Shown here piece after piece: positions 23,878-62,862 of a DNA stretch of 64,000 bases. The translations under genes and the position numbers were made by a program. The stretch is from an uncultured Planctomycetales bacterium. GTDB lineage: Bacteria; Omnitrophota; Gorgyraeia; Gygaellales; Profunditerraquicolaceae. Location of the stretch: contig CAYRUB010000007.1 of the NCBI GenBank assembly GCA_964427405.1, positions 25,364 to 89,363 on the forward strand, given 5' to 3'. The notes under the pieces are model-generated. The model was not told the DNA's origin. It worked only from the letters and a program-made list of their open reading frames with translations, and ran no database searches. Each line of letters begins with the position of its first letter. The stretch's first letter is position 1.

Positions 23878-23939
23878 GGGATCCTACATTATTTCAAAAG
23901 ATTAATTTTAAAATGACAATTTAATGAATGGCAACCCCC

Positions 23940-26693
23940 TTAAAACTTCATACGGTAGTAAGCGCGGATAATGTGCTGGGTATCGAGTGTAGTAAGACTG
24001 CCCCCGAAGGGATCCTGGGTATAATCAATACTACTGCTGTTAATATACCCCTCTCCGTATTCCAGGACCAGCTGGGCATCCTTGGAAAAAGAATAATAAA
24101 ACGACGAGAAGAAATTGTGGTGTCCGATCATCTTGTCTTTCCCTGCCTTAAGATTATCGACGTCTTTGAGCATGGAATAAACATATTTCAGGACTATGCC
24201 GATTCTTTCCGTAGGGGTGATCACGAATTCACAGCCGCCGTGGTTCATGTTTTCCGAGTTCTGCCCGGCGAGTTGAAATTCATTGTTGGTATAATCGAAA
24301 TAAATCTGGAACTTATCGGGTATAGGGGTTAATCTTAAGCCAGTCTTATAGATATTATAATAAGGATACGGCGCTTGAGGGAAATATCCCTGGTCGTAGA
24401 GATAGGCGACCTTCTCGCGGTAAAGCTTGCCGTTCTGGGAATACGTCGTCCAGCTGCTGGAATTATATATACCGTTGGGATAACTGCCGTAGGTCAGGTA
24501 ATAATCGTTGGTGATCTCGTATACTCCGTTCAAAGACATCCAATTGAAAAAGGCATATTCCAAGCCCAGTGAACCCGTGACCAGAGAGGGGTCTTCTCCG
24601 TCGGGAACGGCACTATTAAGAAAATATTCACCCGTATCGGAATCATAAAGAAAAGGGTCCACCCCGCCCTTGGTTAGCGGCAGGCAATGGTATATACCCA
24701 GCCCCTTAACGGTCAGCTTGTCGCCTACCTTCAGGGTTATCTCATCCCGCGCGACATTCTCGATGAACTTGCCGTTAACATTATGCACGTTGCGCATGTC
24801 AAAAAGGTTGGTCAGGCTATCCTGATACTGGAACTCTGTGCGAAAACCGACAGTATTCCTGCCGACATCTATGCCGTCTCCAATGCGAGTAGCCCACAAC
24901 TCGTCAAAATTCACCCCCGAACCTGTGCCCCCGCCAAAACGCCCATACGGCTTGCGGAAAGTAAGATAACGGGACCAAAACATATCGTCGCGGGTATTAG
25001 CGAAAGAGGAAAGCTCGGAATTGAAATTCTGGTCCATGTGCGCGCCGTAAAATTTGGTCTTTACCAGGAAATCCTCCTCCTTGTTCTTCCTGATGCCGTC
25101 ATAACCATACTCCACGTCTTTAAGGCTTTCCAGCGGATAACGGTTGACCAGGTTAAAATAATAAGCGTTTCCCCGGGCATCGCTTTTATATTCCGCGTTG
25201 GTCAGGTCGTATCTGGAAAACGAGGTGAGCACCTCACCCTGCAGTTTCAGGCCATCGAATATTTCGTATCCTAAATCCAGGCCGCCGACATAGTTTTCAC
25301 TGTCCAAATCCATACTGCTATCGGTAGTGAAACCGTGACGGGATGTAAAGGTCGCGCCAGCTACCGCCCTTTCACCGAGAGCCTGCTTGAGACGGACGGC
25401 GGCGATAATGTTATCCACCTCGCCGTAATCCTGCCAGAGATGTTTCGGAGTGGCCACAGTCGCGCTGAGAGAAGTAGTCTCCGTAGGCTGGCTGGAAAAA
25501 GAAACCCCGCGCAAGGCAGTCAGATAAGTCCCGCTGCCGTCCTTAGACAAGAAGGCCAGAGAATTGTCATAATAACCCTTGGTGAAATCAACAGGGGTGG
25601 TTCTGGTATTCACGTTGCCTGTCTGATAACGGCGAAGCCAAAGACTGTTCTCCCACCACTTATGGTGATTGGTAATATTCAAAGGGTCATCCGAAGTCAA
25701 GGCCTGATCCTGGTAAGCTATCGGAAACACCCTTACCTTGGTGCTGCCGTTGACATAATCAACCCAAAGTTCCCTGATCGGCTGAAACCCGGTGCTTATC
25801 TTTGTCTCCGGAACAGTTAAAGTATCCGGATAAGGATAAAAATTCCCGGAAACGTCAAAAGAAACGACTTTACCATTAACTATTTTCGCCTCCGGCAAAG
25901 CGAAACTATTGCCGAAAATCCTGGAATAAGCGATCTGGTTGACGGTATACTGGGTGCTCCCGCTGTATAAAAGCTGGAGATCAACTTTATCGTCGTAAGC
26001 AGTGGTAAGAGACATCGTATCGCTTTTCCCCGCGAAACTCCAGGGATCGACAACCAAGTTGGCGTGCACATTGAAACCGTCATCTTTATTGGTAGTATCC
26101 AGATTCAAGTTAAGGCTTTGATAGACATTCTTATTGTAAGTATTAAAACCGTTGTTCAACGCGTCGTAAGACTGCATCCTCCAGTTGCGCTCGTTCAAAT
26201 CGTAGTTGGAACTATTCCAGATGAAGTCGCCGTTGGAACTAACCCCGAAACTCAACTGGGCCTCTCCGCTAATCTTCATCCACTCCGTGGACTGTTTTTT
26301 CTTATCTCCATATCTATCAAGTGGTTTAGTCTCTGTTTTTAAAGGATCCACGGACTGTTCGGTTGCCTGACGGCCGGATTCCTGGCTTTCGAGATCCTTC
26401 AAGACGCTATCAAACGCCTCCTCCCTGGATGCAGCGGAAGGCTTGATTTCCGGATTACCGGAGGAAGCAAAAATCTCATTCACGTATTTCTTGGCGGTTT
26501 GGTTTTCCGGATCGGCAAACAATACTTTTTCAAACTCCGCCAGGGCTTCCTCGTATTTTCCCTGCTTGTAATAATTTATCCCTGATTCACAAAGGTATTC
26601 AACCGCCTGGCCAGAGGCTAAGGCTTGTTCAGTGGAAACGAGCAACAATAACGAACCCACAATGAAAAACACAATCAAAAACTTTCTCAACAT
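23940..26693 (-). CDS. Large secreted outer-membrane-type protein: N-terminal TPR motif plus a ~800-aa predicted beta-barrel domain
   Basis: 917 aa. Signal peptide, a TPR-like YYKQGKYEEALAEFEKVL, a Y/N/G/T-rich region of alternating hydrophobicity, and a C-terminal ...YYRMKF aromatic end. Confidence 0.6.
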   Translation of the reverse strand: MLRKFLIVFFIVGSLLLLVSTEQALASGQAVEYLCESGINYYKQGKYEEALAEFEKVLFADPENQTAKKYVNEIFASSGNPEIKPSAASREEAFDSVLKDLESQESGRQATEQSVDPLKTETKPLDRYGDKKKQSTEWMKISGEAQLSFGVSSNGDFIWNSSNYDLNERNWRMQSYDALNNGFNTYNKNVYQSLNLNLDTTNKDDGFNVHANLVVDPWSFAGKSDTMSLTTAYDDKVDLQLLYSGSTQYTVNQIAYSRIFGNSFALPEAKIVNGKVVSFDVSGNFYPYPDTLTVPETKISTGFQPIRELWVDYVNGSTKVRVFPIAYQDQALTSDDPLNITNHHKWWENSLWLRRYQTGNVNTRTTPVDFTKGYYDNSLAFLSKDGSGTYLTALRGVSFSSQPTETTSLSATVATPKHLWQDYGEVDNIIAAVRLKQALGERAVAGATFTSRHGFTTDSSMDLDSENYVGGLDLGYEIFDGLKLQGEVLTSFSRYDLTNAEYKSDARGNAYYFNLVNRYPLESLKDVEYGYDGIRKNKEEDFLVKTKFYGAHMDQNFNSELSSFANTRDDMFWSRYLTFRKPYGRFGGGTGSGVNFDELWATRIGDGIDVGRNTVGFRTEFQYQDSLTNLFDMRNVHNVNGKFIENVARDEITLKVGDKLTVKGLGIYHCLPLTKGGVDPFLYDSDTGEYFLNSAVPDGEDPSLVTGSLGLEYAFFNWMSLNGVYEITNDYYLTYGSYPNGIYNSSSWTTYSQNGKLYREKVAYLYDQGYFPQAPYPYYNIYKTGLRLTPIPDKFQIYFDYTNNEFQLAGQNSENMNHGGCEFVITPTERIGIVLKYVYSMLKDVDNLKAGKDKMIGHHNFFSSFYYSFSKDAQLVLEYGEGYINSSSIDYTQDPFGGSLTTLDTQHIIRAYYRMKF

Positions 26694-26805
26694 AATGTTA
26701 TGCGTAGACCCCCCGCGCGTAAATATGTGAATATTAAAGGTGAACGATTATTAATAAGTATTATAGTAAATTTACCGACGTTAACAAGAAAAAACTTTTG
26801 CCCCT

Positions 26806-26831
26806 AAAATAAAGGGGACGGTTCTATTTTT
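26806..26831. repeat. REP element, inverted orientation (aataaaggggacggttctatttt)
   Basis: Reverse complement of the 24-bp REP consensus aaaatagaaccgtcccctttatt. It forms an inverted pair with 26869-26893. Confidence 0.8.
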
Positions 26832-27582
26832 CTTGTAATTTTCGCACTCCTCGCGACATTTCATCTTTAAAAATAGAACCGTCCCCTTTATTTAAAATAG
26901 AACCGTCCCCTTTATTTTTTGACGGCCTTCCTCTATTTTCCCTTTTGTTATTTATCTGATAATATTCTTGGAGCTTATTGACAAAGGTTTGGCTACCAAT
27001 ATATAATTTATTCTCAAGTAGTTCTGAATTTATTATACTGCTGTCAACCACAAAATCAGCATATTGCCGCTGCCGGGATCTATCAGAATCGGATAAACCA
27101 CAGTAAGCCGGACTTTGAGTAAGAAGACTGTCTGGTATGCCTTTCGCGTAAAGGTTATAACTGGAAAAACGATATTCTGAAGGATGCGTCACTATGCCCG
27201 CCCGGACAGAATTAAGCTCGATGTATTTGCCGCATTGTAATAAATAAGAATCTGCCTCAATGATATTACTTTTAAATCTATCCTGCCATAAATGCCCGCA
27301 ATAACTATAGATCTTTCTATAATAGTAAAAATAGCTTAAATTAACCTGCTTCATAAATCTGGATAACATACTTAGCGAATTAATGAGCAGAACTAAATGA
27401 ACGTGATTATCCATAAGGCAATAGTGTAAGATATTTACCGCATTATAATCTTTCCATTGCCTTAATAAAGTGTAATATTTTAGTTTATCGTTATCACTAT
27501 GAAAAACGTTCTGGCGGTTATTGCCCCTGCAGATAATATGTAGAGCCGCATTAAGTGGAATAACCCTCTTTGTTCTTGGCAT
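26824..27582 (-). CDS. IS200/IS605-like Y1 (HuH) transposase; REP-associated tyrosine transposase (RAYT)-type
   Basis: HVHLVL (HuH) and a downstream catalytic-Tyr region (YRKIYSYCGHLWQDRF). The 3' end reads through the REP copies (translated KGDGSILNKGDGSIF), so the functional protein is probably shorter. Confidence 0.75.
   Translation of the reverse strand: MPRTKRVIPLNAALHIICRGNNRQNVFHSDNDKLKYYTLLRQWKDYNAVNILHYCLMDNHVHLVLLINSLSMLSRFMKQVNLSYFYYYRKIYSYCGHLWQDRFKSNIIEADSYLLQCGKYIELNSVRAGIVTHPSEYRFSSYNLYAKGIPDSLLTQSPAYCGLSDSDRSRQRQYADFVVDSSIINSELLENKLYIGSQTFVNKLQEYYQINNKRENRGRPSKNKGDGSILNKGDGSIFKDEMSRGVRKLQEK
26869..26916. repeat. Tandem pair of REP elements in direct orientation
   Basis: Two head-to-tail copies of aaaatagaaccgtcccctttatt. 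They lie inside the 3' end of the RAYT reading frame as called. Confidence 0.8.
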
Positions 27583-27634
27583 AAAACCCTCCTTCTACTG
27601 CTAATAGACGTAAAAGGAGGATAAATCTAACTAG

Positions 27635-27658
27635 AAAAATAGAACCGTCCCCTTTATT
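27635..27658. repeat. REP element, direct orientation
   Basis: aaaaatagaaccgtcccctttatt, 53 bp upstream of the RAYT start. Confidence 0.8.
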
Positions 27659-28040: not shown

Positions 28041-28071
28041 CTTCCGTAGAACCTAAAAACACTTCTATATA

Positions 28072-28098
28072 AAAAAATAGAACCGTCCCCTTTATTTT
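28072..28098. repeat. REP element, direct orientation
   Basis: aaaaaaatagaaccgtcccctttatttt, between the NTF2-like gene and the helicase gene. Confidence 0.8.
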
Positions 28099-29437
28099 AA
28101 ACTAGACTGGCGAAGCGGTCGTTAAATTCATAGATGCGTTCGTCAAATATGACATCACTATGAACCACTGGACGTTTAAGTTTGATACCATTCAGGCAAG
28201 TGCATCGGCTAAGCGCCACATATAACTGGCCATGGGTAAATGCGCCATGCCCAAGGTCAATGATCACTTTATCAAAAGTCTGGCCCTGGCTCTTGTGAAT
28301 GGTTATCGCCCAGGCCAGCTTTAGGGGGTATTGCGCAAATTCCCCCACCACCTCATCTTCTATCTTATCCTCCTCCTCATTGTAGCTATATTCGATCTTC
28401 TCCCACTTCGTAATCGGGACATCATACTCAAAACCATTAATATCCACAACAATGGAATCTTGTGATAAAGCCGCCACCTTGGCCAGCGTGCCATTCACCC
28501 AGCGCTTATCCGGATCATTTTTTATCAAGATTACCTGCGCGCCCTTTTTAAGCTTTAATGATGCTTCGGTAGGATATGCCGGCTCTTCGAATTTACCGGT
28601 AGCATAAGCTTTATATGCAATCTCTTTACCGGGAAGTTTGGATAAACGCTCCTGGTTTATCGCGTTGGCCAGGCTATTGGTCGTAGTCAGGATCACGGTT
28701 GAGTCTTTCCGGGAGGCCGTCACATCTTTTTGCACCTTCTTGTTTAATATCTTAAGGTCCTCATCGGTATGCTCTTTATTCCTTACCCGGTTTAAAAGCT
28801 CCATAAACGAGCTATCTTTCTGCCGATAGATAGTCGACAACTCAATTGTCCTAAGATGGCAATCGTCAAATACTTTAGCGCTGAAGAAATACGGGCTTAA
28901 ATAACGCTCTCCCAAAAGCTGCCTGGCTTCATTTTCCACCACCGGAGACAGCTGAAAAAGATCACCGAAAAATACCATTTGGACTCCGCCAAACGGCGAC
29001 TTCATCCTGCCACGATTAAGACGTAACGCGTAATCAATACCATCCATAAGGTCTGAGCGAACCATAGAGACCTCATCGATAATTATCATATCGAGATTCT
29101 CAAATATACTTCTATCCCTGAGGTGCTTTATCGTATCCTTTTGGATGATCTTGGGAGGAAACCTGAAAAAAGAATGAACAGTCTGGCCGCCGACATTAAC
29201 CGCGGCAACACCTGTCGGAGCTAAAACGATTATATTCTTGCCGGTATTGGCCTTAAAATATTTTAAAAGAGTGGATTTGCCGGTGCCTGCCTTGCCGGTG
29301 ATAAAAAGGCACTCCTTGGTGCGCTCCATAAGATCAAACGCCGACTTGAATTCATCATTTATATCAAGGTTCCCCGGAAGTTGATCTTCGACTATTGTTT
29401 GGTTAGTGAAAAATTTCATATTTTCTTTCTTGATCAC
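28097..29437 (-). CDS. Pif1/RecD-like SF1 DNA helicase
   Basis: 446 aa. Walker A (TGKAGTGKST), DEVSMV, GDLFQLSPV, and a C-terminal TIHKSQGQTFD...ALSR. Confidence 0.8.
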   Translation of the reverse strand: MIKKENMKFFTNQTIVEDQLPGNLDINDEFKSAFDLMERTKECLFITGKAGTGKSTLLKYFKANTGKNIIVLAPTGVAAVNVGGQTVHSFFRFPPKIIQKDTIKHLRDRSIFENLDMIIIDEVSMVRSDLMDGIDYALRLNRGRMKSPFGGVQMVFFGDLFQLSPVVENEARQLLGERYLSPYFFSAKVFDDCHLRTIELSTIYRQKDSSFMELLNRVRNKEHTDEDLKILNKKVQKDVTASRKDSTVILTTTNSLANAINQERLSKLPGKEIAYKAYATGKFEEPAYPTEASLKLKKGAQVILIKNDPDKRWVNGTLAKVAALSQDSIVVDINGFEYDVPITKWEKIEYSYNEEEDKIEDEVVGEFAQYPLKLAWAITIHKSQGQTFDKVIIDLGHGAFTHGQLYVALSRCTCLNGIKLKRPVVHSDVIFDERIYEFNDRFASLV

Positions 29438-30261
29438 TTCCAGGTAATTTTGGCAGGGTTACGCATAGGTATCCGGCTATAACGGTATTTCGGATGGCCA
29501 ACCATCATTACCGCCCCGGCTATCGCGTGTGAAGATAAACCTGTAAACTTTCTTATTTTTTCCGACATATTGATTGCCATATTCACATAACCTGCCCAGC
29601 AAGCGCCCAGACCGCAGCCAAATGCCGCCAGTTCCAAATACGTTGCCGCTATCGTACATGACTGAGGAACCATCGGGTCATCCTTAATACCCTGGGCAAT
29701 AACTATGCAAGGCGCGTTGCGGCAAATCAAATCTTCTTCATTCTTCCAGGCGCTAAGTAAACGGTCAAAACGAAAAGATATCGCCATCTGATTCTTGGCT
29801 TCCAAAAGCTCTTCAATCCATTCAACGATTAAACCACCTAATTCATGCACTTTATCTTTACCCATAATCGTAATCCAACTCACCGGCTGGCGATTGATCC
29901 CGGAGGGAGCATAACGGGCAATATCCAAGAGTTTCTCAATGGATTCTTTAGCTACAGGCTCATCTTTATAGTTACGAATCGAGCGCCGGCTTTTAAGGAA
30001 AAGCTCTGTTTGTTCGGCGTTCGGAAGACTGGCGTAATCCAAGCGCATGGCATCTTTAACATCCATTGTCGAGAGTTTGATCGAACCCTTCGGGCAAAAA
30101 GCAAAACAATGCCCGCAGTTAATACAAGCCTCCCCGCCTCCCGGTATAAATTCCGGCACCCGCTCTGCATTCATCTTTAATATATGCATCGGGCAAACCT
30201 CAACGCATTTTCCATCTCCGGCGCAGGTTTTCTTATCGACTTCAATAGTGATCATTAACAA
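29434..30261 (-). CDS. 4Fe-4S ferredoxin domain fused to a nitroreductase-family flavoenzyme
   Basis: The N-terminus has two Cys clusters (CAGDGKCVEVCP, CINCGHCFAFCP). It is followed by a nitroreductase fold (RRSIRNY...). The start overlaps the helicase gene by 4 nt. Confidence 0.75.
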   Translation of the reverse strand: MLMITIEVDKKTCAGDGKCVEVCPMHILKMNAERVPEFIPGGGEACINCGHCFAFCPKGSIKLSTMDVKDAMRLDYASLPNAEQTELFLKSRRSIRNYKDEPVAKESIEKLLDIARYAPSGINRQPVSWITIMGKDKVHELGGLIVEWIEELLEAKNQMAISFRFDRLLSAWKNEEDLICRNAPCIVIAQGIKDDPMVPQSCTIAATYLELAAFGCGLGACWAGYVNMAINMSEKIRKFTGLSSHAIAGAVMMVGHPKYRYSRIPMRNPAKITWK

Positions 30262-30274
30262 CCCTCATAATAGA

Positions 30275-31255
30275 CTACGCCTTAACTATCACTCCAAATA
30301 AAGTATAAATTTTACACCTTAATTCGTCATCACATGCATTGTACTCATCTATCAACTTAATAATCCTATCAACTTGAACTTTCGATTGTTTTGGCAATAA
30401 AGAAATCTCAACCAATTCATTTTTATTAAGATACTGATGCAGATACTTATAAGGGTCTATTTTTTGAGGAATTGCTTGAGAAAGAATAAGATTCCAGCAA
30501 CATTGAGCATCAATACCATTTAAAAACCGTTCAAACTCTCTGTATTCCTTAAGAGAAACTTCACCTACTAGTTCAATTTTCTGCTGAAACCACTTTTGAA
30601 AGCGCGCCACCTGTTCCCTATAAGACGTAAAGACTTTCTCAATATCAATAGATCCAGAATCGGAGATGAACTTTCTGCTGAGAGCGTTCCAGTTTTTCCA
30701 AGCCAGCAAGTCTCTGGAATATACGATGAAGTGAATAGTCTTCCCACCTCCCGATGGATATGAAACCTGCCAATTGGCTCTTACCATTTCATTATGACAA
30801 ATATAATTCCTCAATTCTTGAACGAAATGATGCTCTGGATTATCAAGAAACACTTCCTTGATTTTTTCTTGGTAGCCATCTATTGGGATTTTCTTAATAG
30901 CATTTCTCGACATATCTACTAACGCCATTGCACTAGTGGTGGCTGAAAACATACCTCTCCTAATCGCTAATTCAAGTTGAGCAATCCGTATACGATTAAC
31001 AGGAAACCAAAACTCTTCAGTATTTTCTTCAGACTTAAAGGTATCAATTGAATCAAATAGATTTACTACAGCATCAGAAAATATATCGAAAGAAAGACTT
31101 AAATTTGCCAATTCTGCGTGGTACATATACCCGGGATGTTCTTTTATTGCCTCTCTAGTCAGAATAAAATCTTGGAAGTAAGCTTTCTCCAAAGATTCCC
31201 TTGTCCAAGGAAGCTGACCCAATGTAACTGCAGAAATTCTATTTGAATTATCCAT
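30275..31255 (-). CDS. Hypothetical protein with a candidate HEPN-type Rx4H motif (ELRNYICHNE)
   Basis: 326 aa with no family match recognised by eye. RNYICH fits the RNxxxH HEPN signature. Last gene of the repeat-punctuated array. Confidence 0.4.
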   Translation of the reverse strand: MDNSNRISAVTLGQLPWTRESLEKAYFQDFILTREAIKEHPGYMYHAELANLSLSFDIFSDAVVNLFDSIDTFKSEENTEEFWFPVNRIRIAQLELAIRRGMFSATTSAMALVDMSRNAIKKIPIDGYQEKIKEVFLDNPEHHFVQELRNYICHNEMVRANWQVSYPSGGGKTIHFIVYSRDLLAWKNWNALSRKFISDSGSIDIEKVFTSYREQVARFQKWFQQKIELVGEVSLKEYREFERFLNGIDAQCCWNLILSQAIPQKIDPYKYLHQYLNKNELVEISLLPKQSKVQVDRIIKLIDEYNACDDELRCKIYTLFGVIVKA

Positions 31256-31343
31256 ACTTCTTAAACAATCTTTTGTATGCCGCCGCTTAAACCTGTTTCA
31301 TTTTTTCTCATCACAAATGACATTCCGATAAAACTTAGGGAAG

Positions 31344-31401
31344 CTTCTATAGTTTTTGCTTCCTCGGCCGTACCCACTTTGACCCCGGAAACGACACTTA
31401 G
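31344..31401. repeat. Cassette-associated ~58-bp conserved intergenic element, copy 1
   Basis: cttctatagtttttgcttcctcggccgtacccactttgaccccggaaacgacacttag. Over 80% identical to copies at 32239-32296 and 33045-33102. Confidence 0.8.
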
Positions 31402-31403
31402 TT

Positions 31404-32180
31404 TTATTTATTAACTTTAAAATCTCTAAATCTGCTATTTTCCTCATAAAAACGCAGATTTTGAATATCTTCATTAACAACAGCTAATATCTTTGTTTTT
31501 GTTTCACTGTTAAATTCATCAAAATTATTAACCAGATTTATAAATTCATCTGCGTTATTAGTTAATTTTCTATTCTGCAACCACCCCTCAAACTTATTTT
31601 TCTGACTATAGTAATTTCTATGTCTTTTGATATAAAGATCATATGCTTCTCGATTTTTATCATTTACAACTTTAAAATTGTTATTTTCTAAGTTTAGGTC
31701 TTTCTCGATAGGATCAAAAAACTGCGCCATACTCCCATACAACTTGTTTTTTAAATCAAAAATATTATAGAAATGATAATCTCGAGATATTGACGTAATC
31801 TCAGCATTACTAAAATTTAACCTCTTGGAAATTGTTATGATTTTTTCATAATAACGTGCGGCTTCTTCTTTAGGCATGCTCGAATCCCATCTTCCCATAC
31901 GCATCATAGTAGAAATATTCATTTCGGTAACTGGAACAGCCAAATCGTGTAAATATTTTAGGAGCTCATCTGCTCTGTGAATCTTTTCTTGAAGCTCAAC
32001 TTCGAGCCCAAGCCCCTTAAAAGATTTAACTGTGTCGGGACAAAGAAAAATTAAGCATAGAAAAGCAGCACAGAATGGCGTCAAAGAAGCACTAGCTTTA
32101 TTTTCGTATGACAACCAACCTCCTAAAACAATAAGCAGAATAAAAAAAGCTAAAAGTATTAAATTTATTATATTACTCAT
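31404..32180 (-). CDS. Hypothetical membrane protein (two N-terminal TM helices plus a soluble domain)
   Basis: 258 aa. TM1 IINLILLAFFILLIVLGGWL and TM2 FCAAFLCLIFLCP. No recognisable domain. Confidence 0.5.
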   Translation of the reverse strand: MSNIINLILLAFFILLIVLGGWLSYENKASASLTPFCAAFLCLIFLCPDTVKSFKGLGLEVELQEKIHRADELLKYLHDLAVPVTEMNISTMMRMGRWDSSMPKEEAARYYEKIITISKRLNFSNAEITSISRDYHFYNIFDLKNKLYGSMAQFFDPIEKDLNLENNNFKVVNDKNREAYDLYIKRHRNYYSQKNKFEGWLQNRKLTNNADEFINLVNNFDEFNSETKTKILAVVNEDIQNLRFYEENSRFRDFKVNK

Positions 32181-32238
32181 ACCCTACCTCCATTTTCTCT
32201 AATAAATAGAGCCTAATTCAATACAATATTTATGGCTA

Positions 32239-32296
32239 ATAATCATTCGCTTCTATAGTTTTTACTTCCTCGGCCGCACCCACTTTAACCCCGGAA
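32239..32296. repeat. Cassette-associated conserved intergenic element, copy 2
   Basis: cttctatagtttttacttcctcggccgcacccactttaaccccggaaacatcccctaa. Confidence 0.8.
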
Positions 32297-32346
32297 ACAT
32301 CCCCTAATTTATTCTCCTTGAAATTCCGCTATCAAATCTTCCCATT

Positions 32347-32919
32347 TTAATGCCCACTTTTACAAAACTGTGTGTTAATCAAAGTTTTCAACTCATGAAA
32401 ATCTTTTTCTAAATTTGGTAATTTCGCTATTAATTCAGGTAATTTTTTAAAAAAAGACCCAGGGTTGTCAACTATTACCAGATTCCCCTCGTTTAGTAAC
32501 ATAATATATGTAAAAAGATGTAACCTTTCCCTGATAGTTACTTGATCCCTATCCATAGAAGCAAGCAGCATACAACCATTTCTCCTTGCTTCAAATATAA
32601 TCGGCTCTTGTTTTGCAAAATTATGGCCTTCACTTAAAATTAAAGTATTTCTTCCCAATTCTTTATTCTTTAATTCGTTTACATCATTTATTCGTAATTT
32701 AACAATCCCTTTAGCGAATTTAACATCTTCTCCTTTTTTATCAATAGAATCTATCACGGCGCCTTTACCTGCGCCTCTTGCCCCTATCAGCAAAATCATA
32801 TCGCCATAGTTTAAATTAAAAGTGACATTAAACAAACCATACTCTCTATTAATACCGGATTTTTCTCTCCTATTACTTCTAGTCAAATCTTTAACTTGTA
32901 ACGGAATAATGTTACTCAT
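32347..32919 (-). CDS. Miniature ABC/SMC-like P-loop ATPase with degenerate motifs
   Basis: 190 aa. A beta-hairpin plus Walker A (FNVTFNLNYGDMILLIGARGAGKGAVIDSI) of the ABC/RecF/SMC type. LSEGH in place of the LSGGQ signature. LVIVDNPG in place of the DEP Walker B. A C-terminal SGH. Confidence 0.45.
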   Translation of the reverse strand: MSNIIPLQVKDLTRSNRREKSGINREYGLFNVTFNLNYGDMILLIGARGAGKGAVIDSIDKKGEDVKFAKGIVKLRINDVNELKNKELGRNTLILSEGHNFAKQEPIIFEARRNGCMLLASMDRDQVTIRERLHLFTYIMLLNEGNLVIVDNPGSFFKKLPELIAKLPNLEKDFHELKTLINTQFCKSGH

Positions 32920-33044
32920 ATTTTTTATTCTCCTTAAGAATTACTCTCGATTATTTTGAAATCCAGAAACACACTGTTTATTTACCCCCAGCCTTCACCC
33001 CAAAGTAATAAAGGAGACATCTCTATTTTTCTTATTTTGGCTAC

Positions 33045-33102
33045 CTTCTATAAATTTTACTTCCTCGGCCGCGCCCACTTAAACTCCGAAAGCGACGCTT
33101 AG
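33045..33102. repeat. Cassette-associated conserved intergenic element, copy 3
   Basis: cttctataaattttacttcctcggccgcgcccacttaaactccgaaagcgacgcttag. Confidence 0.8.
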
Positions 33103-33117
33103 TTTAAAGAAACTTCC

Positions 33118-33702
33118 CTATTGCTTTATATCTTTTTCTATGTTGTATGTCTCAAAAAATACTTTTATAAAGAACAGTTCCAACAAATGCCTAAAAGCAA
33201 TATTTACTTGCACCATCGCAAAAGTAAAAAAATATGAAGAAAACATAGTAATGAAAATTTTGATAATTATTTTAAACCATGTTGCCATTTTGGATATAAA
33301 TTGAGGATGATAGAAATATGTATCCCTAATGATTGTTTTGGCTGCATATAATATTGCAAAAGAAATGATAATAAATACCGCAGAGAGGAACAGCTTTTCT
33401 CCAACAAAACAGTAAATCCTGCTCCTACTTGCATCTTTAGTAGCCCTAGATGCGCTAAATGACAGTGCCCCCAAAGCAATAATAGAACCAATAACTGTAA
33501 TAATAATCTTAAGGTCTTCTACACTTTGTTCTGTGCGTAGATTCATGACCTTACTAAAATAAAATTGCCCCAACCATAGAACAAAATAAATCGGGATTAA
33601 TAGTACCACTTCTTTTCCGATCCATTTTATTTTAGTTATAGCGGATTGCCTTAATAAAGTTTTCATATCAAATGCTCGTATTTTTTTGTCGATATATTCC
33701 AA
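33118..33702 (-). CDS. Hypothetical polytopic membrane protein (~4 TM helices)
   Basis: 194 aa with four hydrophobic segments. No recognisable domain. Confidence 0.5.
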   Translation of the reverse strand: MEYIDKKIRAFDMKTLLRQSAITKIKWIGKEVVLLIPIYFVLWLGQFYFSKVMNLRTEQSVEDLKIIITVIGSIIALGALSFSASRATKDASRSRIYCFVGEKLFLSAVFIIISFAILYAAKTIIRDTYFYHPQFISKMATWFKIIIKIFITMFSSYFFTFAMVQVNIAFRHLLELFFIKVFFETYNIEKDIKQ

Positions 33703-33736: not shown

Positions 33737-33777
33737 AAAAAAAAGACAACCCCCTATTTTAGAGGATTGCCTTATAG
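33737..33777. repeat. Copy 2 of the A-run/palindrome element
   Basis: aaaaaaaagacaaccccctattttagaggattgccttatag. Matches 19401-19442. Confidence 0.6.
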
Positions 33778-33827: not shown

Positions 33828-34442
33828 TTAGATTCCTAATATCTTTTTGATAAATACCGGCCGCGCATAAAACGCACGAGTCTTTGAACCATGCCCTGAC
33901 CCTTTTGTGCGTGCCTGTATCCACTTGCCATCTTTACCGGTCAAACTCCCAAACCCTTGAGTAATAAGCTTATTGCGAATGAAATCATAATCAGCTTTAA
34001 CTTCTAGGATAAGTTCATCTGTTTTGGCAAAATCCAGGCTCGTAACTTCCAATAATTCGGCTTTTTCCGCATTCTTTCCATACCACATTACAGCGCAGAA
34101 AATAATTGCTTTGAGTTTCGACCAACAATGACTCTCAAAGAATGAGTTCGCCTTTAGTTCTTCGGGATTAATCATGGTGATAGCCATCGTCTCTTTAGGC
34201 ACAAGCTTATCTTTTACATAATGAAAGCTGACGGATTTTAATTCATAAGTAAGGCCATTAGGAGCTTTAGAAACATTTGTTTCCAATCCAGCCAAGCGCT
34301 CTAAAATTAGGCCTTTCCAACCCTTGTTTTGTCTCCCGGTTTCAAAGGTAGTAACGCCATATTTTAAAGCTAACTTTCTTAAATCTTGCCCGATATACTT
34401 TTTTAAATTACTTATTGCTGTTGCGCGTGTGATAATCTTCAT
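33828..34442 (-). CDS. MutH/Sau3AI-family type II restriction endonuclease
   Basis: 204 aa. NKGWKGLILERLAGLETNVSKAPNGLTYELKSVS aligns with E. coli MutH [36 protein letters not shown]. Confidence 0.6.
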   Translation of the reverse strand: MKIITRATAISNLKKYIGQDLRKLALKYGVTTFETGRQNKGWKGLILERLAGLETNVSKAPNGLTYELKSVSFHYVKDKLVPKETMAITMINPEELKANSFFESHCWSKLKAIIFCAVMWYGKNAEKAELLEVTSLDFAKTDELILEVKADYDFIRNKLITQGFGSLTGKDGKWIQARTKGSGHGSKTRAFYARPVFIKKILGI

Positions 34443-34458
34443 AGTATTGAGCAGGTTT

Positions 34459-35337
34459 TCATGTTTTCCCTAAATCATTAAGCCTCTTTATAGAAGTTTT
34501 CAGGTATGATTGTTCTAACTCTATCCCTATAAACTGTCTCTTTCCTCCTACTGCCGCGACGCCGGTAGTAGAGCTACCCGTAAAGGGATCCAATACTATA
34601 TCTCCCGGCTTTGTGGAGGCTAATACAATCCTATTTAACAATTCCAGGGGTTTTTGAGTTGGGTGTTTACCATATATTTTCTCTGCCGAGCCCGGGGCCT
34701 TAATAGACCAAAGACTTAGCATTTGCTTATCGTTATTCATTTTCTTCATCAAGGGATAATTAAAAAAATGCTTACTGTCTTTACTCTTAGCTGCCCAAAG
34801 AATAGTTTCTGTGGAATGAGTAAAATACCTACAGCTTAAATTCGGCGGAGGATTTACTTTAAACCAAGCAATATCATTTAATATCTTGTAGCCCAATCCT
34901 TGCATAGCTGAGCCAACTGTATAAATTATATGTGATGTTCCAGAAACCCAAATTGTGCCATTAGGGGTTAAAACCCTCTGACATTCTCTAAGCCATCTTT
35001 GAGTAAAGATAAAATCCTCTTCAATACCTTTTGAAACATCCCATTTACCTTTATTTACAGAGACTTTCTTTCCAGCATGACAAGTAAACCCACCGTTTGA
35101 CAAAAAATATGGTGGGTCAGCAAAAATCATATCTACTGAGTTTTCAGGTAGCTTAGAAAGAATATCGAAACAATCGTTATTAAAAAGAACAACACTGTGT
35201 TTCTTATCCACAAAATATGGCTTTTCGGGAATATCTTTAATCAAATTAAAGATATCTTTCTTATTAATTGATTTTTCTATAGTTGTGGTAGGCATAACTA
35301 TCGCAGGCAGATTAATAATGTTTTCATTTTGTTCCAT
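34459..35337 (-). CDS. DNA amino-methyltransferase (N6-adenine or N4-cytosine; DPPY then FxGxG order)
   Basis: 292 aa. FADPPYF (motif IV) precedes VLDPFTGSSTTGVAA (motif I). Confidence 0.8.
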   Translation of the reverse strand: MEQNENIINLPAIVMPTTTIEKSINKKDIFNLIKDIPEKPYFVDKKHSVVLFNNDCFDILSKLPENSVDMIFADPPYFLSNGGFTCHAGKKVSVNKGKWDVSKGIEEDFIFTQRWLRECQRVLTPNGTIWVSGTSHIIYTVGSAMQGLGYKILNDIAWFKVNPPPNLSCRYFTHSTETILWAAKSKDSKHFFNYPLMKKMNNDKQMLSLWSIKAPGSAEKIYGKHPTQKPLELLNRIVLASTKPGDIVLDPFTGSSTTGVAAVGGKRQFIGIELEQSYLKTSIKRLNDLGKT

Positions 35338-35434: not shown

Positions 35435-36484
35435 TCAGAAAATCCACACAAAGTTCAAAGACTCAAAAAGCCCCTCAAGCCGGTCTTTCCCGGCATACTC
35501 CTGGCTCACCTTTGCGGTAAGAGAACATTTATCTTTAATCGCCCAGTAAACAATCTGCGCCCCAACACCGCTAATAGCATTCTTAGTCTTATCCGTAGCC
35601 GAGCTTCCGGAATCATCAGTAATCTGCCACTGATTATAACCGGTAAGCCCAATTTCAACACGCGGATGCACATACTGGCTTACGCCATATTCAATGGTCA
35701 TGGTCTGGCCCGGCTGAATATCCGTATCGATTTTCTTGCTGTTCCATTCATAGGTAGGAGTAAACATAAAAGCCGTGGTTTTATTTTCAAAGGGATAGAA
35801 ATATGTAGCCGCCTGCAGGCGCTGCGAGAAAAATCCCATACCAACGTTAGCGACTTTGTCTTTATCATAGGCGCCGGTCGGAAGCGTTACGGCATAACTA
35901 AAAGCCACATCATGCCTCTTACCTCGCCAGTCCAGCCACAGAGGCTGAACAATTAGATCCCCGAGCCCCCACTGCTGGCCCTTAATTTTAACTTCTTCTC
36001 CCATGGAAAAATCACGGGAATGCGATCCTACCTTAATCGTACCTGATGCTGTCCCCTGGACTGCGACATTAACGCTCGTATAGCCCCAGGACGGTATTAC
36101 CATAAATCCATAATCAGCTCCCAGAATCTTTTTATCGGTAGCCCAGGCAAAAGCAAGGGTCTGCATCGCGCTATGTATACTAAAATCCAGGTTCGCGTTA
36201 AGAGTACCGGTAATTGTAATAGGTACTGATTTAACCGTCCCCCTCCATGAACCTGAAACACTCACTGAATCAAAGGTGTTCCCGCTTGAGTCTTTCATTT
36301 TATCTGCATGATAATAAGTATCATAGCCGATCAAATAAAAACCCTTGGACGGCATAACATAATCTCTCAGCGCCATAGGCGCAGGAGCATAATGCCCTTG
36401 CTCACCGGCAAATGCAGAACCAATAAATATTAAATTCAGAATTGATAAAACCAGGCACAAAAAGAGATGCATAATTCTGCGCAT
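35435..36484 (-). CDS. Outer-membrane beta-barrel protein (putative transporter/porin)
   Basis: 349 aa. Signal peptide, alternating beta-strand pattern, and a C-terminal ...NFVWIF. Confidence 0.6.
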   Translation of the reverse strand: MRRIMHLFLCLVLSILNLIFIGSAFAGEQGHYAPAPMALRDYVMPSKGFYLIGYDTYYHADKMKDSSGNTFDSVSVSGSWRGTVKSVPITITGTLNANLDFSIHSAMQTLAFAWATDKKILGADYGFMVIPSWGYTSVNVAVQGTASGTIKVGSHSRDFSMGEEVKIKGQQWGLGDLIVQPLWLDWRGKRHDVAFSYAVTLPTGAYDKDKVANVGMGFFSQRLQAATYFYPFENKTTAFMFTPTYEWNSKKIDTDIQPGQTMTIEYGVSQYVHPRVEIGLTGYNQWQITDDSGSSATDKTKNAISGVGAQIVYWAIKDKCSLTAKVSQEYAGKDRLEGLFESLNFVWIF

Positions 36485-39198
36485 TATTTCCCTCTTTGTT
36501 GATCACCCGCGTAGATAGTCTTCCAATCATCCTTCATACTCGCGACTGTCCAACCTTTAGCCAAAGCTTCATCCAGTCCTTTGTCAAAAGGATCCGCAGA
36601 CTTACGGTCATAAGCCCACTCTCGCTGGTCATCGGTATGATGCACATAAAGACAAAAACGTGCTCCGGGGCCTGCGGCAGTCCATTGCATCATTGCCAGG
36701 TCATTATCGGAATTGCCGAAAGAAGCAATCGGGCGGCGGCCGATGTGGGATTGGATACCGACAGGTTTGCCGCTTCCGGCGTTGATAAAATTCAACTCCG
36801 GCATACCCATAATCGCTGGAATACCGTTACGAAGTTCAAACTGGGTTTTTATACTGCTTCCGACGACTTGCTCAGGCACAATACCATAAACCTTTTCCGC
36901 CCAGGGGCGCATAAAATCCATACTGCCGCCTGAAACAATGTAGGTTTTGAAACCGTTGGCGCGCAAATAAACAAGCAATTCAAGCATAGGTTGATATACC
37001 ATCTCTGTATATAACCGCTTAGTCTCCGGATGCCTGGCGGTAGCAATCCACTCCGTAACGTATTTTTCAAATTCATCCGAGGTTACTCCGGACTGCGTGG
37101 CGATAATCATTTCCGAAAGTTCATTAATTCCTCCGGATAACGCAGAGTTCTGATCACCTTTAAGTATAGAAACAAAAGGCTCTTTACTCATCCACTCCGG
37201 ATGCTCTTGAGCAAGGGCTTTAATCCGATCAGAAATAAAATAACCCTGGAAAACCATCGGCTGTTCACTCCAAAGCGTGCCGTCATTGTCAAAAGTAGCA
37301 ATGCGTTCCTCAACCGGCACAAAATTAGGAGAACCAGGCCTGGTCACCTCTTCAACAAAAGCGACAATTGCCTTTTTCGGCGCTGTATCATTCCAGGATG
37401 GCAAGGGATCATCAATGCGCACCAAATCTAATTTTGACAATTTTTCCTGCATTGCAGTGCTCAGTTGTTTTACAAGCTCTGCATTATATGATCCATTAGG
37501 CCTTGGCTTTACAGTTGGATCATTTGTAGGATTATAATCATATATATTTGCATTAGTTATCTGCTCTGCCGCAATGGCGTATGTTCGCGATGCCGCAGCC
37601 AATGATCCTTCCTTGACTGCCGGATCAACGTTAGTCGTAACGATTGAAATTGTATTGTCGCTATTAAGATATATCTGGAAAGTGCGGAACTGCTGCGGGA
37701 AATCCCTTAATGATGAAGTCTCAACATGCCAGAAGCCTTTTTCAGGGGCGTTAACCGGATCAGGTGAGATAAATGCTTTAACCGTATTCAAATGACGGTG
37801 CCCGGCAATCCACATAATCAAATTCGGATGGCTTTGCAGTTCAGTAATTAAATCCGGAAAGTTTACCGCGTTTTGAGGGTCAGTCCACCAACCCATCTCG
37901 GAATTAGGCGCGGTCACTTCTACGCCTATCGGTACGTGCGCGGCAATAATCATCAGCTGGCCAGCGGCATCTCCATCGAAAAGTTCTTTCTTTAACCACT
38001 CCCAACGCGCTGAATCAAGAAAACCGTGCCCATGGATGTCGGCAGAACCATCGTCTTCCTTTTGGGTATCATCAAGCACGATAATCTTAAGCGGTATATT
38101 CGACTTCGGCACAAAGCTATAGCAGGCAAAACCCTTGTTGGCATCGACCAGGTTGAAACCATGGCCTGCCGGGTTTGTTGTGGTTATAAGAAATTCCTTC
38201 ATCCACTCATCTCTCTTAAGTGAACGGCGATTCAGATCAGCTGCAACCTTTGGCGGGCTCTTAAAGTCTGCTGCGGGTCCGGCGTATTTGACATCACCAT
38301 AAGGTGTCAAGCCATCAAGTACACCCATATAATAATCATGTTTGTTTATTGTCGCGGGGTTTGTAAGGATATCTCCCGTGGCAAAGACTTCATCGCTGAT
38401 ATATGACTGTCGAAGATCCTTTCGCAGGCCATAATCCACAGGAATGGAACCAATCCAGAAATGATCATGGTTGCCGAGAGCCTGATACCAGGGGATTGTC
38501 TTATCCAGCCCTGCTGCCTGAAAAGGTTTTTGATAATCGATAGTCCCGGCTCCAAGATGAGCCCCGGAGCTTGGGAAAATTACCTTACCGTCTAAGACAT
38601 CAATATACCACCTAAGCTCATTGTACTGCGTGCTGTTACAGGTATCTCCCAGAGAAATTCCAAAATCAAATGGGCTTTGTTTATGAAGGGCATTTATCGT
38701 CTGAACAGCGGCATCCAAAACTTGAGTTGTATACAACATAATCCCTGAATGCAGTGAAGCGCCAATTGGCAATGTTGGATGCAAGTTTTGAAGATAGATC
38801 AATTGATTAGGAGCTTCTTTGTCGGTGATATGGATGTCGGTTATAGTAAAGAAATTGAGGAGTTTTGCTTTTTTAACGGCTGTTGAGGCATCGTAAAGAG
38901 CCAGCATGATATCGGTCCGGGTTTCAGATTTAAGAGGATCGCCAAAGCTCCAGCTACCATAGCCGTATTGTTTGTATTTTGAAATCTCATCAAGGCGAAC
39001 CGCCTCAGCAGGTTTTGGGCCAGGCACGACTGTCCTCTGGAGAGTCGTAAAAACATCAGTAGCAATCGGGTATTCCTGAAGCTGACTTTGATTTTTGACT
39101 GCGGTTTTTGAACATGTCGAGCATCCCGCTAAAGAGAAAATCAGCGCACCTATTAAAAAGGTTAAACAGAGCTTATTGAATTTATAAGATGGTTTCAT
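36484..39198 (-). CDS. Lipoprotein fusion: calcineurin-like metallophosphoesterase domain plus a C-terminal HAD-superfamily phosphatase domain
   Basis: 904 aa. LAGCSTC lipobox. MPE motifs GDTCNS, GNHDH, AAHVPIG, GHRHLN. A HAD motif I FDNDGTLW and a distal GNSDNDLAM. Confidence 0.7.
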   Translation of the reverse strand: MKPSYKFNKLCLTFLIGALIFSLAGCSTCSKTAVKNQSQLQEYPIATDVFTTLQRTVVPGPKPAEAVRLDEISKYKQYGYGSWSFGDPLKSETRTDIMLALYDASTAVKKAKLLNFFTITDIHITDKEAPNQLIYLQNLHPTLPIGASLHSGIMLYTTQVLDAAVQTINALHKQSPFDFGISLGDTCNSTQYNELRWYIDVLDGKVIFPSSGAHLGAGTIDYQKPFQAAGLDKTIPWYQALGNHDHFWIGSIPVDYGLRKDLRQSYISDEVFATGDILTNPATINKHDYYMGVLDGLTPYGDVKYAGPAADFKSPPKVAADLNRRSLKRDEWMKEFLITTTNPAGHGFNLVDANKGFACYSFVPKSNIPLKIIVLDDTQKEDDGSADIHGHGFLDSARWEWLKKELFDGDAAGQLMIIAAHVPIGVEVTAPNSEMGWWTDPQNAVNFPDLITELQSHPNLIMWIAGHRHLNTVKAFISPDPVNAPEKGFWHVETSSLRDFPQQFRTFQIYLNSDNTISIVTTNVDPAVKEGSLAAASRTYAIAAEQITNANIYDYNPTNDPTVKPRPNGSYNAELVKQLSTAMQEKLSKLDLVRIDDPLPSWNDTAPKKAIVAFVEEVTRPGSPNFVPVEERIATFDNDGTLWSEQPMVFQGYFISDRIKALAQEHPEWMSKEPFVSILKGDQNSALSGGINELSEMIIATQSGVTSDEFEKYVTEWIATARHPETKRLYTEMVYQPMLELLVYLRANGFKTYIVSGGSMDFMRPWAEKVYGIVPEQVVGSSIKTQFELRNGIPAIMGMPELNFINAGSGKPVGIQSHIGRRPIASFGNSDNDLAMMQWTAAGPGARFCLYVHHTDDQREWAYDRKSADPFDKGLDEALAKGWTVASMKDDWKTIYAGDQQRGK

Positions 39199-62099: not shown

Positions 62100-62129
62100 A
62101 CACTTTGTAGTTTTTAGCTAACGTAATCC

Positions 62130-62408
62130 TTAAGCAATAACCTTATCAAATTCCTCCATAGTGATTGCGGGAAAACTGGTAAAGGAGATATTGGTCAGTT
62201 TATTTAACGCAACCGAAACTTTCATTACCTCGGAAATACCTGGAAATTCCGTAATCAACACGATGTCGTATTTGCCCAGAAGCGCGTACATAGAGTTGAC
62301 TTTGCCGCCAGCCTTGGTTATTACATCAAGCGCCTTCGTGGTTCTATCGGCCGAAATGCCACCCAGTGCATCCTTACTATACTTACCGTACATAAAAAAC
62401 TTTGCCAT
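62130..62408 (-). CDS. GYD-domain protein
   Basis: 92 aa. MAKFFMYGKYS...GKYDIVLI is typical of the GYD family. Confidence 0.7.
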   Translation of the reverse strand: MAKFFMYGKYSKDALGGISADRTTKALDVITKAGGKVNSMYALLGKYDIVLITEFPGISEVMKVSVALNKLTNISFTSFPAITMEEFDKVIA

Positions 62409-62486
62409 TTTGACACCTCCTTGTTTTATTTCTTATTATAATAATCCAAATATAAATGCTAGGTTATCGAAACTCTAGAAAATTTA

Positions 62487-62726: not shown

Positions 62727-62862
62727 ATACTACCCCCTTTTTTTACCTAAAACGGTCTCCTAAAATACAAAAACTCGACACGTAACGTAATTATATTTAC
62801 ACTAATAATTTCAATTCTTTTAGGTATTAGAGATTCCATTTCGATATCCATATTCCATTCTT

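Follow-up and report, generated by a model that had tools for sequence, protein, structure and literature searches.

Do four small genes that are read in one direction, are parted by a recurring repeat and lie among defence genes encode a single system, or are they unrelated neighbours? The question is raised by a 64-kb stretch of a Candidatus Omnitrophota chromosome (hereafter the window), in which four minus-strand open reading frames (ORFs), called here g1 to g4 in their direction of reading, occupy positions 30275 to 33702. An earlier note on this DNA placed these ORFs correctly and proposed that they form one defence module; this proposal is not borne out, as the genes vary independently in relatives and the same repeat separates unrelated genes elsewhere. 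The reading that we favour, with moderate confidence, is that g1 to g4 are four separate accessory genes, not one system, within a hypervariable defence hotspot punctuated by R60, an element resembling a doublet of repetitive extragenic palindromes (REPs) or a miniature transposable element with inverted repeats (MITE). We take R60 to be such a doublet, similar to REP doublets forming hairpins (REPINs), to bacterial interspersed mosaic elements (BIMEs) or to MITEs, because in well-preserved copies its arms resemble or adjoin a second repeat, R24, which brackets a gene for a transposase like the REP-associated tyrosine transposases (RAYTs).

The window was compared with other contigs, designated below by L numbers where they have to be told apart; gene orders are given in Table 1. 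The variable region extends from about 23.3 to 35.4 kb of the window, and inside it lies a shared block of a nitroreductase gene (NTR) and a PIF1 helicase gene. Four contigs (L124, L129, L130 and L147) align with the window at flanks or internal landmarks, where nucleotide identity is 89-95%, and L147 covers the entire region, its left flank (a Phenol_MetA_deg-type gene) corresponding to window 35435-36576 and its right flank to window 23293 downward. In L129, L130 and L147 the NTR, PIF1, RAYT or flank genes are shared, and the genes between the repeats differ. All-against-all BLASTP found almost nothing else in common between the loci besides the nitroreductase, PIF1 and transposase genes; L126 has only a MazG/SLFN-helicase pair in common with L124, and adds an SMC-like ATPase with a methyltransferase and a Schlafen AlbA_2 protein. 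The corresponding hotspot in relatives is rich in restriction-modification (R-M), NTPase, nuclease and helicase genes, in agreement with the defence-island setting that the earlier note had described.

Within this hotspot, g4 is directly preceded in L130, L147 and L148 by a 252-aa gene, with R60 upstream of the pair and none of g1 to g3 present. The sole homologue of g3 is distant (27% identity) and is a lone gene beside a pyroglutamyl-peptidase gene at an unrelated locus, with no R60 near it, and a search of 5.8 billion proteins returned no homologue of g2 besides g2 itself. Since g1 to g4 do not travel together, the relatives come close to the picture of scattered, unlinked genes that the note had named as contrary to its proposal; between co-occurrence and cassette-like variation, the alternative it had put to comparison, the outcome is cassette-like. 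The junction upstream of g4 is informative in this respect: between the third window copy of R60 and g4 lies a remnant of the 252-aa gene, and the arrangement g3-R60-g4 is therefore a secondary junction, not an ancestral one. The boundaries of the g4 segment, 31330 and 30263, are identical against L130 and L147, and 31330 is the base after the 3' arm of that R60 copy. At 30263 the g4 segment directly abuts the nitroreductase segment, where L130 has 4 kb with three R60 copies and L147 a 113-aa gene.

The note had reported a near-identical element of about 58 bp in each gap. Each of the three gaps does hold one repeat of about 60 nt, but "near-identical" overstates the likeness, because the window copies (plus-strand coordinates 31335-31404, 32241-32310 and 33036-33105) are 77-79% identical over 70 nt, the centre of about 45 nt alone coming close to 90%. 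A 21-nt core pattern with at most 3 mismatches occurs three times in the 64 kb, compared with 0 in 100 shuffles, and the R60 cores lie 0, 12 and 36 nt after stop codons and 69-125 nt before the next start codon. No R60 or R24 was found in the 64-kb window outside 26.8-33.1 kb. A genome-collection scan with a GC-rich 18-base R60 pattern gave, among the matches listed, a single true one, L098, a short contig of a Candidatus Omnitrophota metagenome-assembled genome that is not placed relative to the hotspot; the rest were chance matches in Streptomyces coding sequence. A longer pattern, run through the complete metagenome collection, gave five true contigs (L124-L127 and L129) and four chance matches. 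An nhmmer profile located 23 R60 copies in those loci and L130, and three weaker ones in L147 and L148. The family thus recurs in eight loci (the window and seven other Candidatus Omnitrophota loci), always between unrelated genes: everywhere it is co-oriented with the genes, lies just past stop codons and divides unrelated single genes or two-gene units, and in L098 it adjoins a GmrSD gene. In the 475-kb contig of the closest relative, a complete scan with the strict pattern found one site only, and in viral contigs, scans for the two repeats R60 and R24 turned up chance matches at most.

Several other identities for R60 were considered and rejected. A tRNA-derived att repeat, as in tandem islands and tycheposons, was discarded for want of any tRNA or tmRNA gene in the window. 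A peptide encoded by the element, which would open at a GTG in the core as MGAAEE(A/V)KTIEA..., was discarded as 1-nt indels in an A-run break the frame between copies. For a promoter or terminator there is neither sigma-70 spacing nor a T-run in R60, and scans stayed at chance level.

R60 is a palindromic element of about 85-130 nt in which two inverted arms surround a conserved spacer of about 40 nt (GGGGTTTAAGTGGGCGCGGCCGAGGAAGCAAAAACTAT), while R24 is a repeat of 24 nt (AATAAAGGGGACGGTTCTATTTTT). In one form of R60, a core of about 60 nt lies between the imperfectly complementary 5' arm TAAAACTA(R)GGGACGCTTCY and 3' arm AGAAACGTYCCC..GTTTTA; in the other, GCAGTCAAAACAAG and an inverted R24 come after the core, and mostly a forward R24-like stretch also precedes it. 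An inverted R24-like stretch follows 9 of the 23 copies, six of these nine have an R24-like stretch upstream as well, and the best pairs are perfect. The copy L130_3989 forms 18 pairs in a 20-nt arm (single-stranded DNA fold z -4.5) and L129_2822 has a 24-bp stem (z -7.2). The 5' arm of an L130 copy scores 22 against R24, where shuffles have a mean of 10.7 and only 2 of 1000 reach that score. Over eleven R60 copies, 78% of arm columns are paired, a figure that falls to 31-54% if the partner is shifted by 1-3 columns. The dinucleotide TA stands directly outside the 5' end in 14 of 20 copies and at the 3' end in most short-arm copies, and may either extend the palindrome or reflect a TA target duplication.

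The link between R60 and the Y1 (HUH) transposase is provided by R24. Copies of R24 lie around the transposase gene in inverted orientation, at 27635-27655 (minus strand) and 26811-26831 (plus strand), and two tandem copies lie at 26869-26913 (minus strand) inside the 3' end of its ORF. The protein is 252 aa long here and 225 aa in its L129 homologue, and R24 was therefore inserted into the coding region. The tandem copies (window 26866-26919, minus strand) encode a repeated ...NKGDGSI(L/F) C-terminal extension of the transposase. The protein matches Pfam Y1_Tnp at E 2e-15, and its best NCBIfam model is REP_Tyr_transpos with 55 bits, compared with 21 bits for IS200. By eye, R24 alone has weak self-complementarity; it contains GGGGACGG, which agrees with GGGGWSAS at 7 of 8 positions, its other strand has CGTC, and no GTAG tag is present, CGTC and GTAG being the terminal tags of REPs. 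RAYT-like genes flanked by terminal inverted repeats (TIRs) with a GGGGWSAS motif have been described as TIRtrons or TIRYTs (Di Nocera et al. 2013, PMC3733652), and TIR families form dimers with conserved 20-100-nt spacers that closely adjoin the upstream ORF at its 3' end (PMC3733652). In L098, an R24-like sequence (TAAAAATGAACGGTTCTATTTATTAAA) is found at 1600-1626 and 3103-3129, in one case beside R60 and in the other behind a gene with no R60, so that the two repeats are able to occur apart. In L129, a complete R24-R60-R24 element stands at the site of what looks, in the window, like an R60 without its core (28041-28072). Homology of the R60 spacer with the spacer of the R24 pair 3' of the transposase gene was also considered, and was rejected since 239 of 1000 shuffles score as well.

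Several observations weigh against the assignment of R60 to REP doublets. The arms of the window's own copies resemble R24 at chance level only, and all three of these copies fold no better than shuffled sequence on either strand; because they neither fold nor match R24, the assignment depends on the better-preserved copies of the relatives. The arms of the eleven copies examined contain no covariation beyond column composition. Conservation in R60 is higher in the spacer than in the arms, opposite to classical REPINs, which hints at a spacer function of its own. The transposase, at 55 bits, falls below the NCBIfam REP_Tyr_transpos cut-off of 80 bits. Finally, R60 is seemingly confined to one locus, whereas classical REPs are dispersed genome-wide.

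Where synteny between relatives breaks at definable points, most of these coincide with R60 or R24. This, too, has to be read with restraint, because most of the short intergenic space is taken up by the repeats and breakpoints near them are partly expected. Such gap-filling nevertheless fails to explain two junctions, the one between R60 copy 3 and the truncated 252-aa gene, and the one in L129 between a truncated R60 and a duplicated PIF1 fragment. At the latter (L129 102-180), a 35-nt duplicate of PIF1 codons ~15-27 follows the nitroreductase stop and is joined to a 5'-truncated R60, an arrangement that reads as the scar of a rearrangement, one endpoint of which lies within a gene. Next in L129 come an MFS transporter gene with a full element and then the intact PIF1 gene; this insert falls precisely on the junction of NTR and PIF1, and its end is the last base of an R24 arm. 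L147 has no RAYT at this locus, and its R60 and R24 copies are weak and decayed. At the other side of the RAYT, the 917-aa gene for a TPR/outer-membrane-like protein (23940-26693; region 23878-26805) is absent from the close relative L129, where a LOG-like gene comes directly after the inverted R24; the extra segment of the window starts right after the R24 copy at 26806-26835.

These patterns suggest a mechanism in which R60 elements would spread locally through the neighbouring RAYT or another transposase, and would then serve as junctions for the gain, loss and swapping of accessory genes. The routes could include element insertion, short-homology recombination and element-associated deletion. 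As a transcribed 3' structure, R60 could also insulate or stabilise the mRNA of each gene. Given these two junctions and the decayed copies of L147, which lacks the RAYT at this locus, a more active role of the element is conceivable.

How do other explanations compare? One novel four-gene defence or abortive-infection (Abi) system, with the repeat as a shared regulatory or processing element of its operon, would suit genes that are co-directional, tightly packed and set in a defence-rich island, and it could draw on the conserved HEPN-type motif of g4 and the P-loop-like sequence of g2. It conflicts with the other partner of the g4 homologues, with the solitary g3 homologue and the absence of any for g2, with a repeat that separates unrelated genes in eight loci, and with the remnant of another gene between the third repeat and g4. 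In addition, the catalytic motifs of g2 are degenerate, and PADLOC-DB 2.0 models match g1 to g4 at chance level only (E at least 0.003, over short stretches), which leaves standing the statement of the note that no named defence system could be assigned. The comparative data have already largely refuted this explanation, and we regard it as scarcely credible. An integron-type array, in which R60 would be an attC-like site acting as a folded single strand and the integrase would be encoded elsewhere (as in clusters of attC sites lacking integron-integrases, CALINs), agrees with several features: single ORFs of one orientation, behind each of which stands an imperfect palindrome of 80-130 nt, cassette content that differs between close relatives, repeats confined to one locus, and element ends, (T)AAAAC...GTTTT(A), that hold the AAC/GTT triplets of attC R boxes. 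Beyond these triplets, however, the ends are unlike RYYYAAC and GTTRRRY, the arms are equal in length with no conserved extrahelical bases or bulges, and the central ~40 nt are conserved and not self-complementary. The arms are instead related to the repeats flanking the Y1 transposase gene, and some junctions lie inside genes or the element, not at a single fixed crossover point. As to an integrase, no window ORF of at least 100 aa has the H.LRH and LGH motif pair (a weak, motif-level test), and the records of L130 and of the complete L147 hotspot list no Phage_integrase domain, although a CALIN would need none. An attC identity of R60 was rejected on this account (no R-box consensus, bulges, window hairpins or integrase), and we consider an integron-type array highly unlikely.

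A cassette platform built on the Y1 transposase would keep the link to R24: the RAYT, perhaps together with PIF1, would move gene-plus-R60 units as single-stranded DNA, with the arms as hairpin ends. The RAYT does lie at the array edge in both the window and L129, the R60 repeats are related to its own flanking repeats, copies are sharper where it is present and decayed where it is absent (L147), one R60 end abuts a truncated gene, and the MFS-gene-plus-R60 unit of L129 has the precise placement and end described above. On the other hand, no cassette was found at two positions with identical element-defined ends, several junctions resemble plain, illegitimate deletions, the window copies have lost arms, and PIF1 is itself variable, another gene following NTR in L130. 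One account moreover presents RAYTs as domesticated, single-copy and moving REPINs, not genes (PMC5581495). We judge transposition of this kind rather unlikely. That R60, R24 and the RAYT-like transposase together make up a locus-restricted capture platform for mostly defence genes, each with a hairpin-forming REP doublet on its 3' side and inserted, excised and shuffled in single-stranded form at one chromosomal site, is accordingly put forward as a speculation of low probability, and the analogy by which such a platform might be a functional counterpart of the integron, with an HUH transposase replacing the tyrosine recombinase, is equally doubtful. Alternatively, the conserved spacer may be the functional part of R60, either a cis-acting RNA or a site for protein binding, carried along with accessory genes, and the arms would be incidental; a 3'-untranslated-region stabiliser, an RNase site, a nucleoid-protein site and a promoter are candidate roles. 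The greater conservation of the spacer across samples and genomes and its fixed position just past stop codons speak for this possibility, and precedents exist in the linker of E. coli BIME-1, which has an IHF site, and in Correia elements, which have IHF sites and promoters. Yet an Rfam scan of 29-36 kb gave no match at E <= 1, the core has no stable fold or sigma-70-like spacing, the promoter scan was not above chance, and the A-run indels exclude a peptide. We find the spacer explanation unlikely; it is compatible with a hotspot punctuated by REP-doublet-like elements, and does not exclude it.

Among the four genes, g4 can be described most fully. Close homologues, from a word-indexed search, are confined to this lineage. 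A profile built from g4 and three close homologues, searched against 1.84 billion representatives, retrieved a family of 1678 representatives (50% identity) at E <= 1e-3 and 162 at E <= 1e-30, the latter mostly full-length at 320-370 aa. The RNxxxH motif pointed out by the note is real (RNYICH, residues 149-154): R149 and H154 are the sole invariant residues in an alignment of 114 diverse family members, with consensus LRNxxxH. HEPN proteins are recognised by an Rx4-6H motif in which the R is followed by a polar residue (N, D or H) (PMC3710099), and the g4 family has such a polar residue, conserved family-wide. An AlphaFold model made from 4 sequences was unusable (predicted local distance difference test, pLDDT, 47) and was replaced by one from the 114-sequence alignment (pLDDT 96.3, predicted template-modelling score, pTM, 0.89), which is mostly helical. 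In this model the motif sits at the C-terminal end of helix 140-154 and is followed by a loop and a beta-hairpin. HEPN motifs lie at the end of core helix 3 or the start of the next loop, in a four-helix up-down core (PMC3710099), and the helix-end position in g4 would suit that placement. Fold searches gave no significant match; HEPN structures among the matches (1ylm, 7ae6/7ae8, 3jrt) score no better than generic helical bundles. It weighs further against a HEPN assignment that none of the 114 members has a match to a Pfam HEPN family at E <= 0.01. Nor did any other informative Pfam family or any PADLOC model match these 114 members, and no sequence relative of the family was found in the PDB.

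The ratio of non-synonymous to synonymous substitution rates (dN/dS) among three close copies of g4 is 0.24-0.29. Members of the family are located beside HNH_2 and HEPN_AbiU2 genes, and also on an integrase/Rep_trans element, where GGDEF and TIR genes adjoin. A conserved partner gene was sought and rejected, the upstream neighbours in L130, L131 and L140 being unlike each other and unlike g3. From motif and model, we conclude that the family probably represents a new group of HEPN-like RNases, and that g4 most likely acts on its own as a HEPN-type RNase effector, of the Abi or toxin kind, as predicted here. In L147 and L148 (L147 6880-10981), the pair formed by the 252-aa gene and g4 has a gene for a DUF87 (HerA-like) ATPase upstream, with R60 between. 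In L145 6001-10069 (NCBI CP054184.1), a 578-aa protein has a g4-family domain at its C-terminal side (residues 254-574); its gene belongs to an integrase/HTH_17/Rep_trans element, and behind it lie a GGDEF/Cas10-palm gene and a TIR gene; this may be a signalling-type defence module using the g4-family domain.

The other three proteins offer less. The transmembrane (TM) segments that the note had predicted for g1 and g3 agree with hydropathy. For g1, the gene call of the source assembly starts at an ATG at 33666, giving 182 aa, and this is likely the true start. There is no Pfam, NCBIfam or PHROG match to g1 and one weak PADLOC match (E 0.013); its 90%-identity cluster holds g1 alone, no search for distant homologues having been made. 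Both g1 and g3 are, by their sequences, membrane proteins with no or almost no relatives. The ABC-like P-loop with degenerate motifs reported for g2 was recovered as a weak N-terminal similarity to Pfam ABC_tran (E 5e-5, 24.2 bits for a cut-off of 25, profile positions 2-75 of 137 only), and the PDB and NCBIfam matches are likewise restricted to the Walker-A half. The Walker A motif, GARGAGKG, has G after the K (canonical GxxGxGK[ST]), the Walker B motif, LVIVDNP, has N in place of E (canonical hhhhDE), and VTIRER stands at the expected site of the LSGGQ signature, which is lacking. As judged from these motifs, g2 is a degenerate ABC-type nucleotide-binding domain whose motifs depart from those of an ABC-type ATPase.

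Table 1. Coordinates of features in the window (64 kb) and gene orders in the window and related loci. Slashes part successive genes or gene groups.
Feature	Position	Strand	Description
g1	33118..33702	-	194 aa from TTG; membrane ORFan (gene with no known relatives), ~4 TM segments by hydropathy
R60 copy 1	33007..33124	-	Core 33045-33105; degenerate R24-like arms, the inverted R24-like stretch on the 3' side at 33007-33030; 5' arm overlaps g1 stop codon; no significant hairpin, z +1.3
g2	32347..32919	-	190 aa; degenerate ABC-type nucleotide-binding domain (by sequence), ORFan
R60 copy 2	32250..32310	-	Core only; both arms lost; z +0.8
g3	31404..32180	-	258 aa; 2 N-terminal TM segments and soluble domain (hydropathy)
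R60 copy 3	31326..31410	-	Core 31344-31404; overlaps g3 stop codon by one base; short terminal inverted repeat ATAAAACT.AG / CT.AAGTTTTAT; z -1.5
Remnant of 252-aa gene	31259..31330	-	Frameshifted 3' end (last ~24 codons); starts where R60 copy 3 ends
g4	30275..31255	-	326 aa; large uncharacterised family, invariant RNxxxH (R149, H154)
Type II R-M pair	33828..35337	-	Upstream edge of variable region; N6_N4 methyltransferase 34459-35337, Sau3AI/MutH-like restriction endonuclease 33828-34442
Terminator-like hairpin and T-run	33743..33773	-	Between restriction endonuclease gene and g1; consensus scan only
Nitroreductase-Fer4 gene and overlapping PIF1-family helicase gene	28097..30261	-	Likely nitroreductase start 30255; shared with relatives inside the variable region
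R24 copy and R60 remnant	28041..28096	-	Located downstream of PIF1; R24 at 28073-28093, then TATAGAAGTGTTTTTAGGTTCTACGG, which looks like an R60 with its interior deleted
RAYT-like Y1 (HUH) transposase gene and R24 repeats	26806..27658	-	Gene 26824-27582; ~3.5 kb downstream of R60 array
Gene order, window			R-M / g1 / g2 / g3 / g4 / NTR-PIF1 / SnoaL / RAYT / 917-aa gene
Gene order, L130			HTH, two methyltransferases and MvaI/BcnI restriction endonuclease / EamA / 192 aa / 252 aa and g4 / NB-ARC/TPR and 130 aa / 109 aa / NTR
Gene order, L124			MazG-like, SLFN-group-3 helicase/S24 and HNH / 276 aa and 1049-aa DEAD helicase / 204 aa / NTR
Gene order, L147			Response regulator-HTH, Dam and N6_N4 methyltransferases, DUF3825 / DUF87 ATPase / 252 aa and g4 / 113 aa / NTR-PIF1
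Gene order, L149			NTR, then R24 pairs and further modules including NTP_transf_2, GNAT and SIR2

Domain searches agree with the note on both flanks of the array, an R-M pair upstream and a nitroreductase/PIF1 helicase pair downstream. Its remark on AT-richness holds within the island, of which the array is the lowest-GC stretch (0.32-0.34, against about 0.42-0.44 in the surroundings), but the window end at 63-64 kb is equally low. This end belongs to a second low-GC stretch (0.33-0.35; window 62001-64000) with small ORFs, a possible further accessory region. The restriction endonuclease, of 204 aa, matches the first ~190 of 475 Sau3AI model positions and nearly the full MutH model; it is thus a MutH-sized nuclease, presumably of the GATC type, paired with the N6_N4 methyltransferase. 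The hairpin upstream of g1, going by its consensus, is what separates g1 from the R-M operon. Between the g4 stop and the nitroreductase start there are 19 nt (window 30256-30274; TCTATTATGAGG GTTGTTA ATG), and the nitroreductase gene, which has lost the leader present upstream in L124 and L130, may now rely on g4 read-through.

If the reading favoured here is right, the lesson of this locus is that a repeat-punctuated run of small unknown genes can mimic an operon-encoded system and yet be a patchwork of independent acquisitions. On that reading it also documents a defence hotspot in the little-studied phylum Omnitrophota, and it brings forward the g4 family as a candidate new HEPN-type effector, large, unannotated and missing from Pfam and PADLOC. 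If the capture platform considered above were real, RAYT-type transposases would also organise gene-cassette turnover, which would amount to a second, mechanistically distinct route to integron-like arrays, and the long-open question of how a RAYT benefits its host would become directly testable.

Set beside known systems, g4 shares with the HEPN RNase toxins and Abi proteins (HepT, AbiU2, AbiV, RnlA; Anantharaman et al. 2013, PMC3710099) an invariant R-N/D-x3-H at a helix end before a loop, a largely helical structure, and family members in defence or mobile-element neighbourhoods. It differs in its size of ~330 aa, far larger than a HEPN domain, in a beta-hairpin insert, in the lack of a Pfam HEPN match, and in that no MNT-type or other conserved partner was found. 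The hotspot as a whole resembles REP/BIME/REPIN sequences with their RAYT (REPtrons) and TIRtrons/TIRYTs (PMC3733652) in its single-copy Y1 transposase gene between inverted R24 copies, in a repeat that, in the better-preserved copies of relatives, forms head-to-head doublets with a conserved 20-100-nt spacer, in the extragenic position of R60 near the 3' end of the upstream ORF and at variable distance from the next, and in a partial agreement of R24 with GGGGWSAS, of which GGGGACGG matches 7 of 8 positions. Unlike these, R60 is seemingly confined to one variable locus of ~12 kb and, over the 475-kb contig, is not dispersed in many copies; its spacer is better conserved than its arms, and R24 appears only weakly self-complementary by eye; its elements separate strain-specific genes; and the transposase scores below the NCBIfam RAYT cut-off.

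With integron arrays and CALINs the locus has in common promoterless-looking single ORFs of shared orientation, each with an imperfect palindrome behind it, a content that varies among close relatives, and many cassettes that are ORFans or toxin/defence-type genes. The differences are that there is no IntI here, no attC R-box consensus or extrahelical bases, that the centre of the repeat is conserved and non-palindromic, and that its arms are related to the repeats of a Y1 transposase gene. Correia elements (CREE/NEMIS) and similar MITEs are alike in layout, with no likeness in sequence to be expected, being ~85-130 nt long, TA-bounded and with terminal inverted repeats, and R60 is similarly intergenic, co-oriented and probably co-transcribed with genes, with a conserved central segment. 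Unlike R60, Correia elements occur in hundreds of dispersed copies, and we know of no Y1 transposase to which they are tied. Defence islands and variable-gene hotspots, finally, show the same fixed core flanks (here a Phenol_MetA_deg-type gene on one side and CBAH and Na_Ala_symp genes on the other) and a strain-specific content rich in R-M systems, NTPases and nucleases, but not the same small palindromic element at nearly every module boundary together with a Y1 transposase gene in the hotspot, a combination of which no description was found in the literature. The locus is best seen as a hypervariable defence hotspot whose modules are separated by seemingly locus-restricted elements related to the repeats of a RAYT-like gene.

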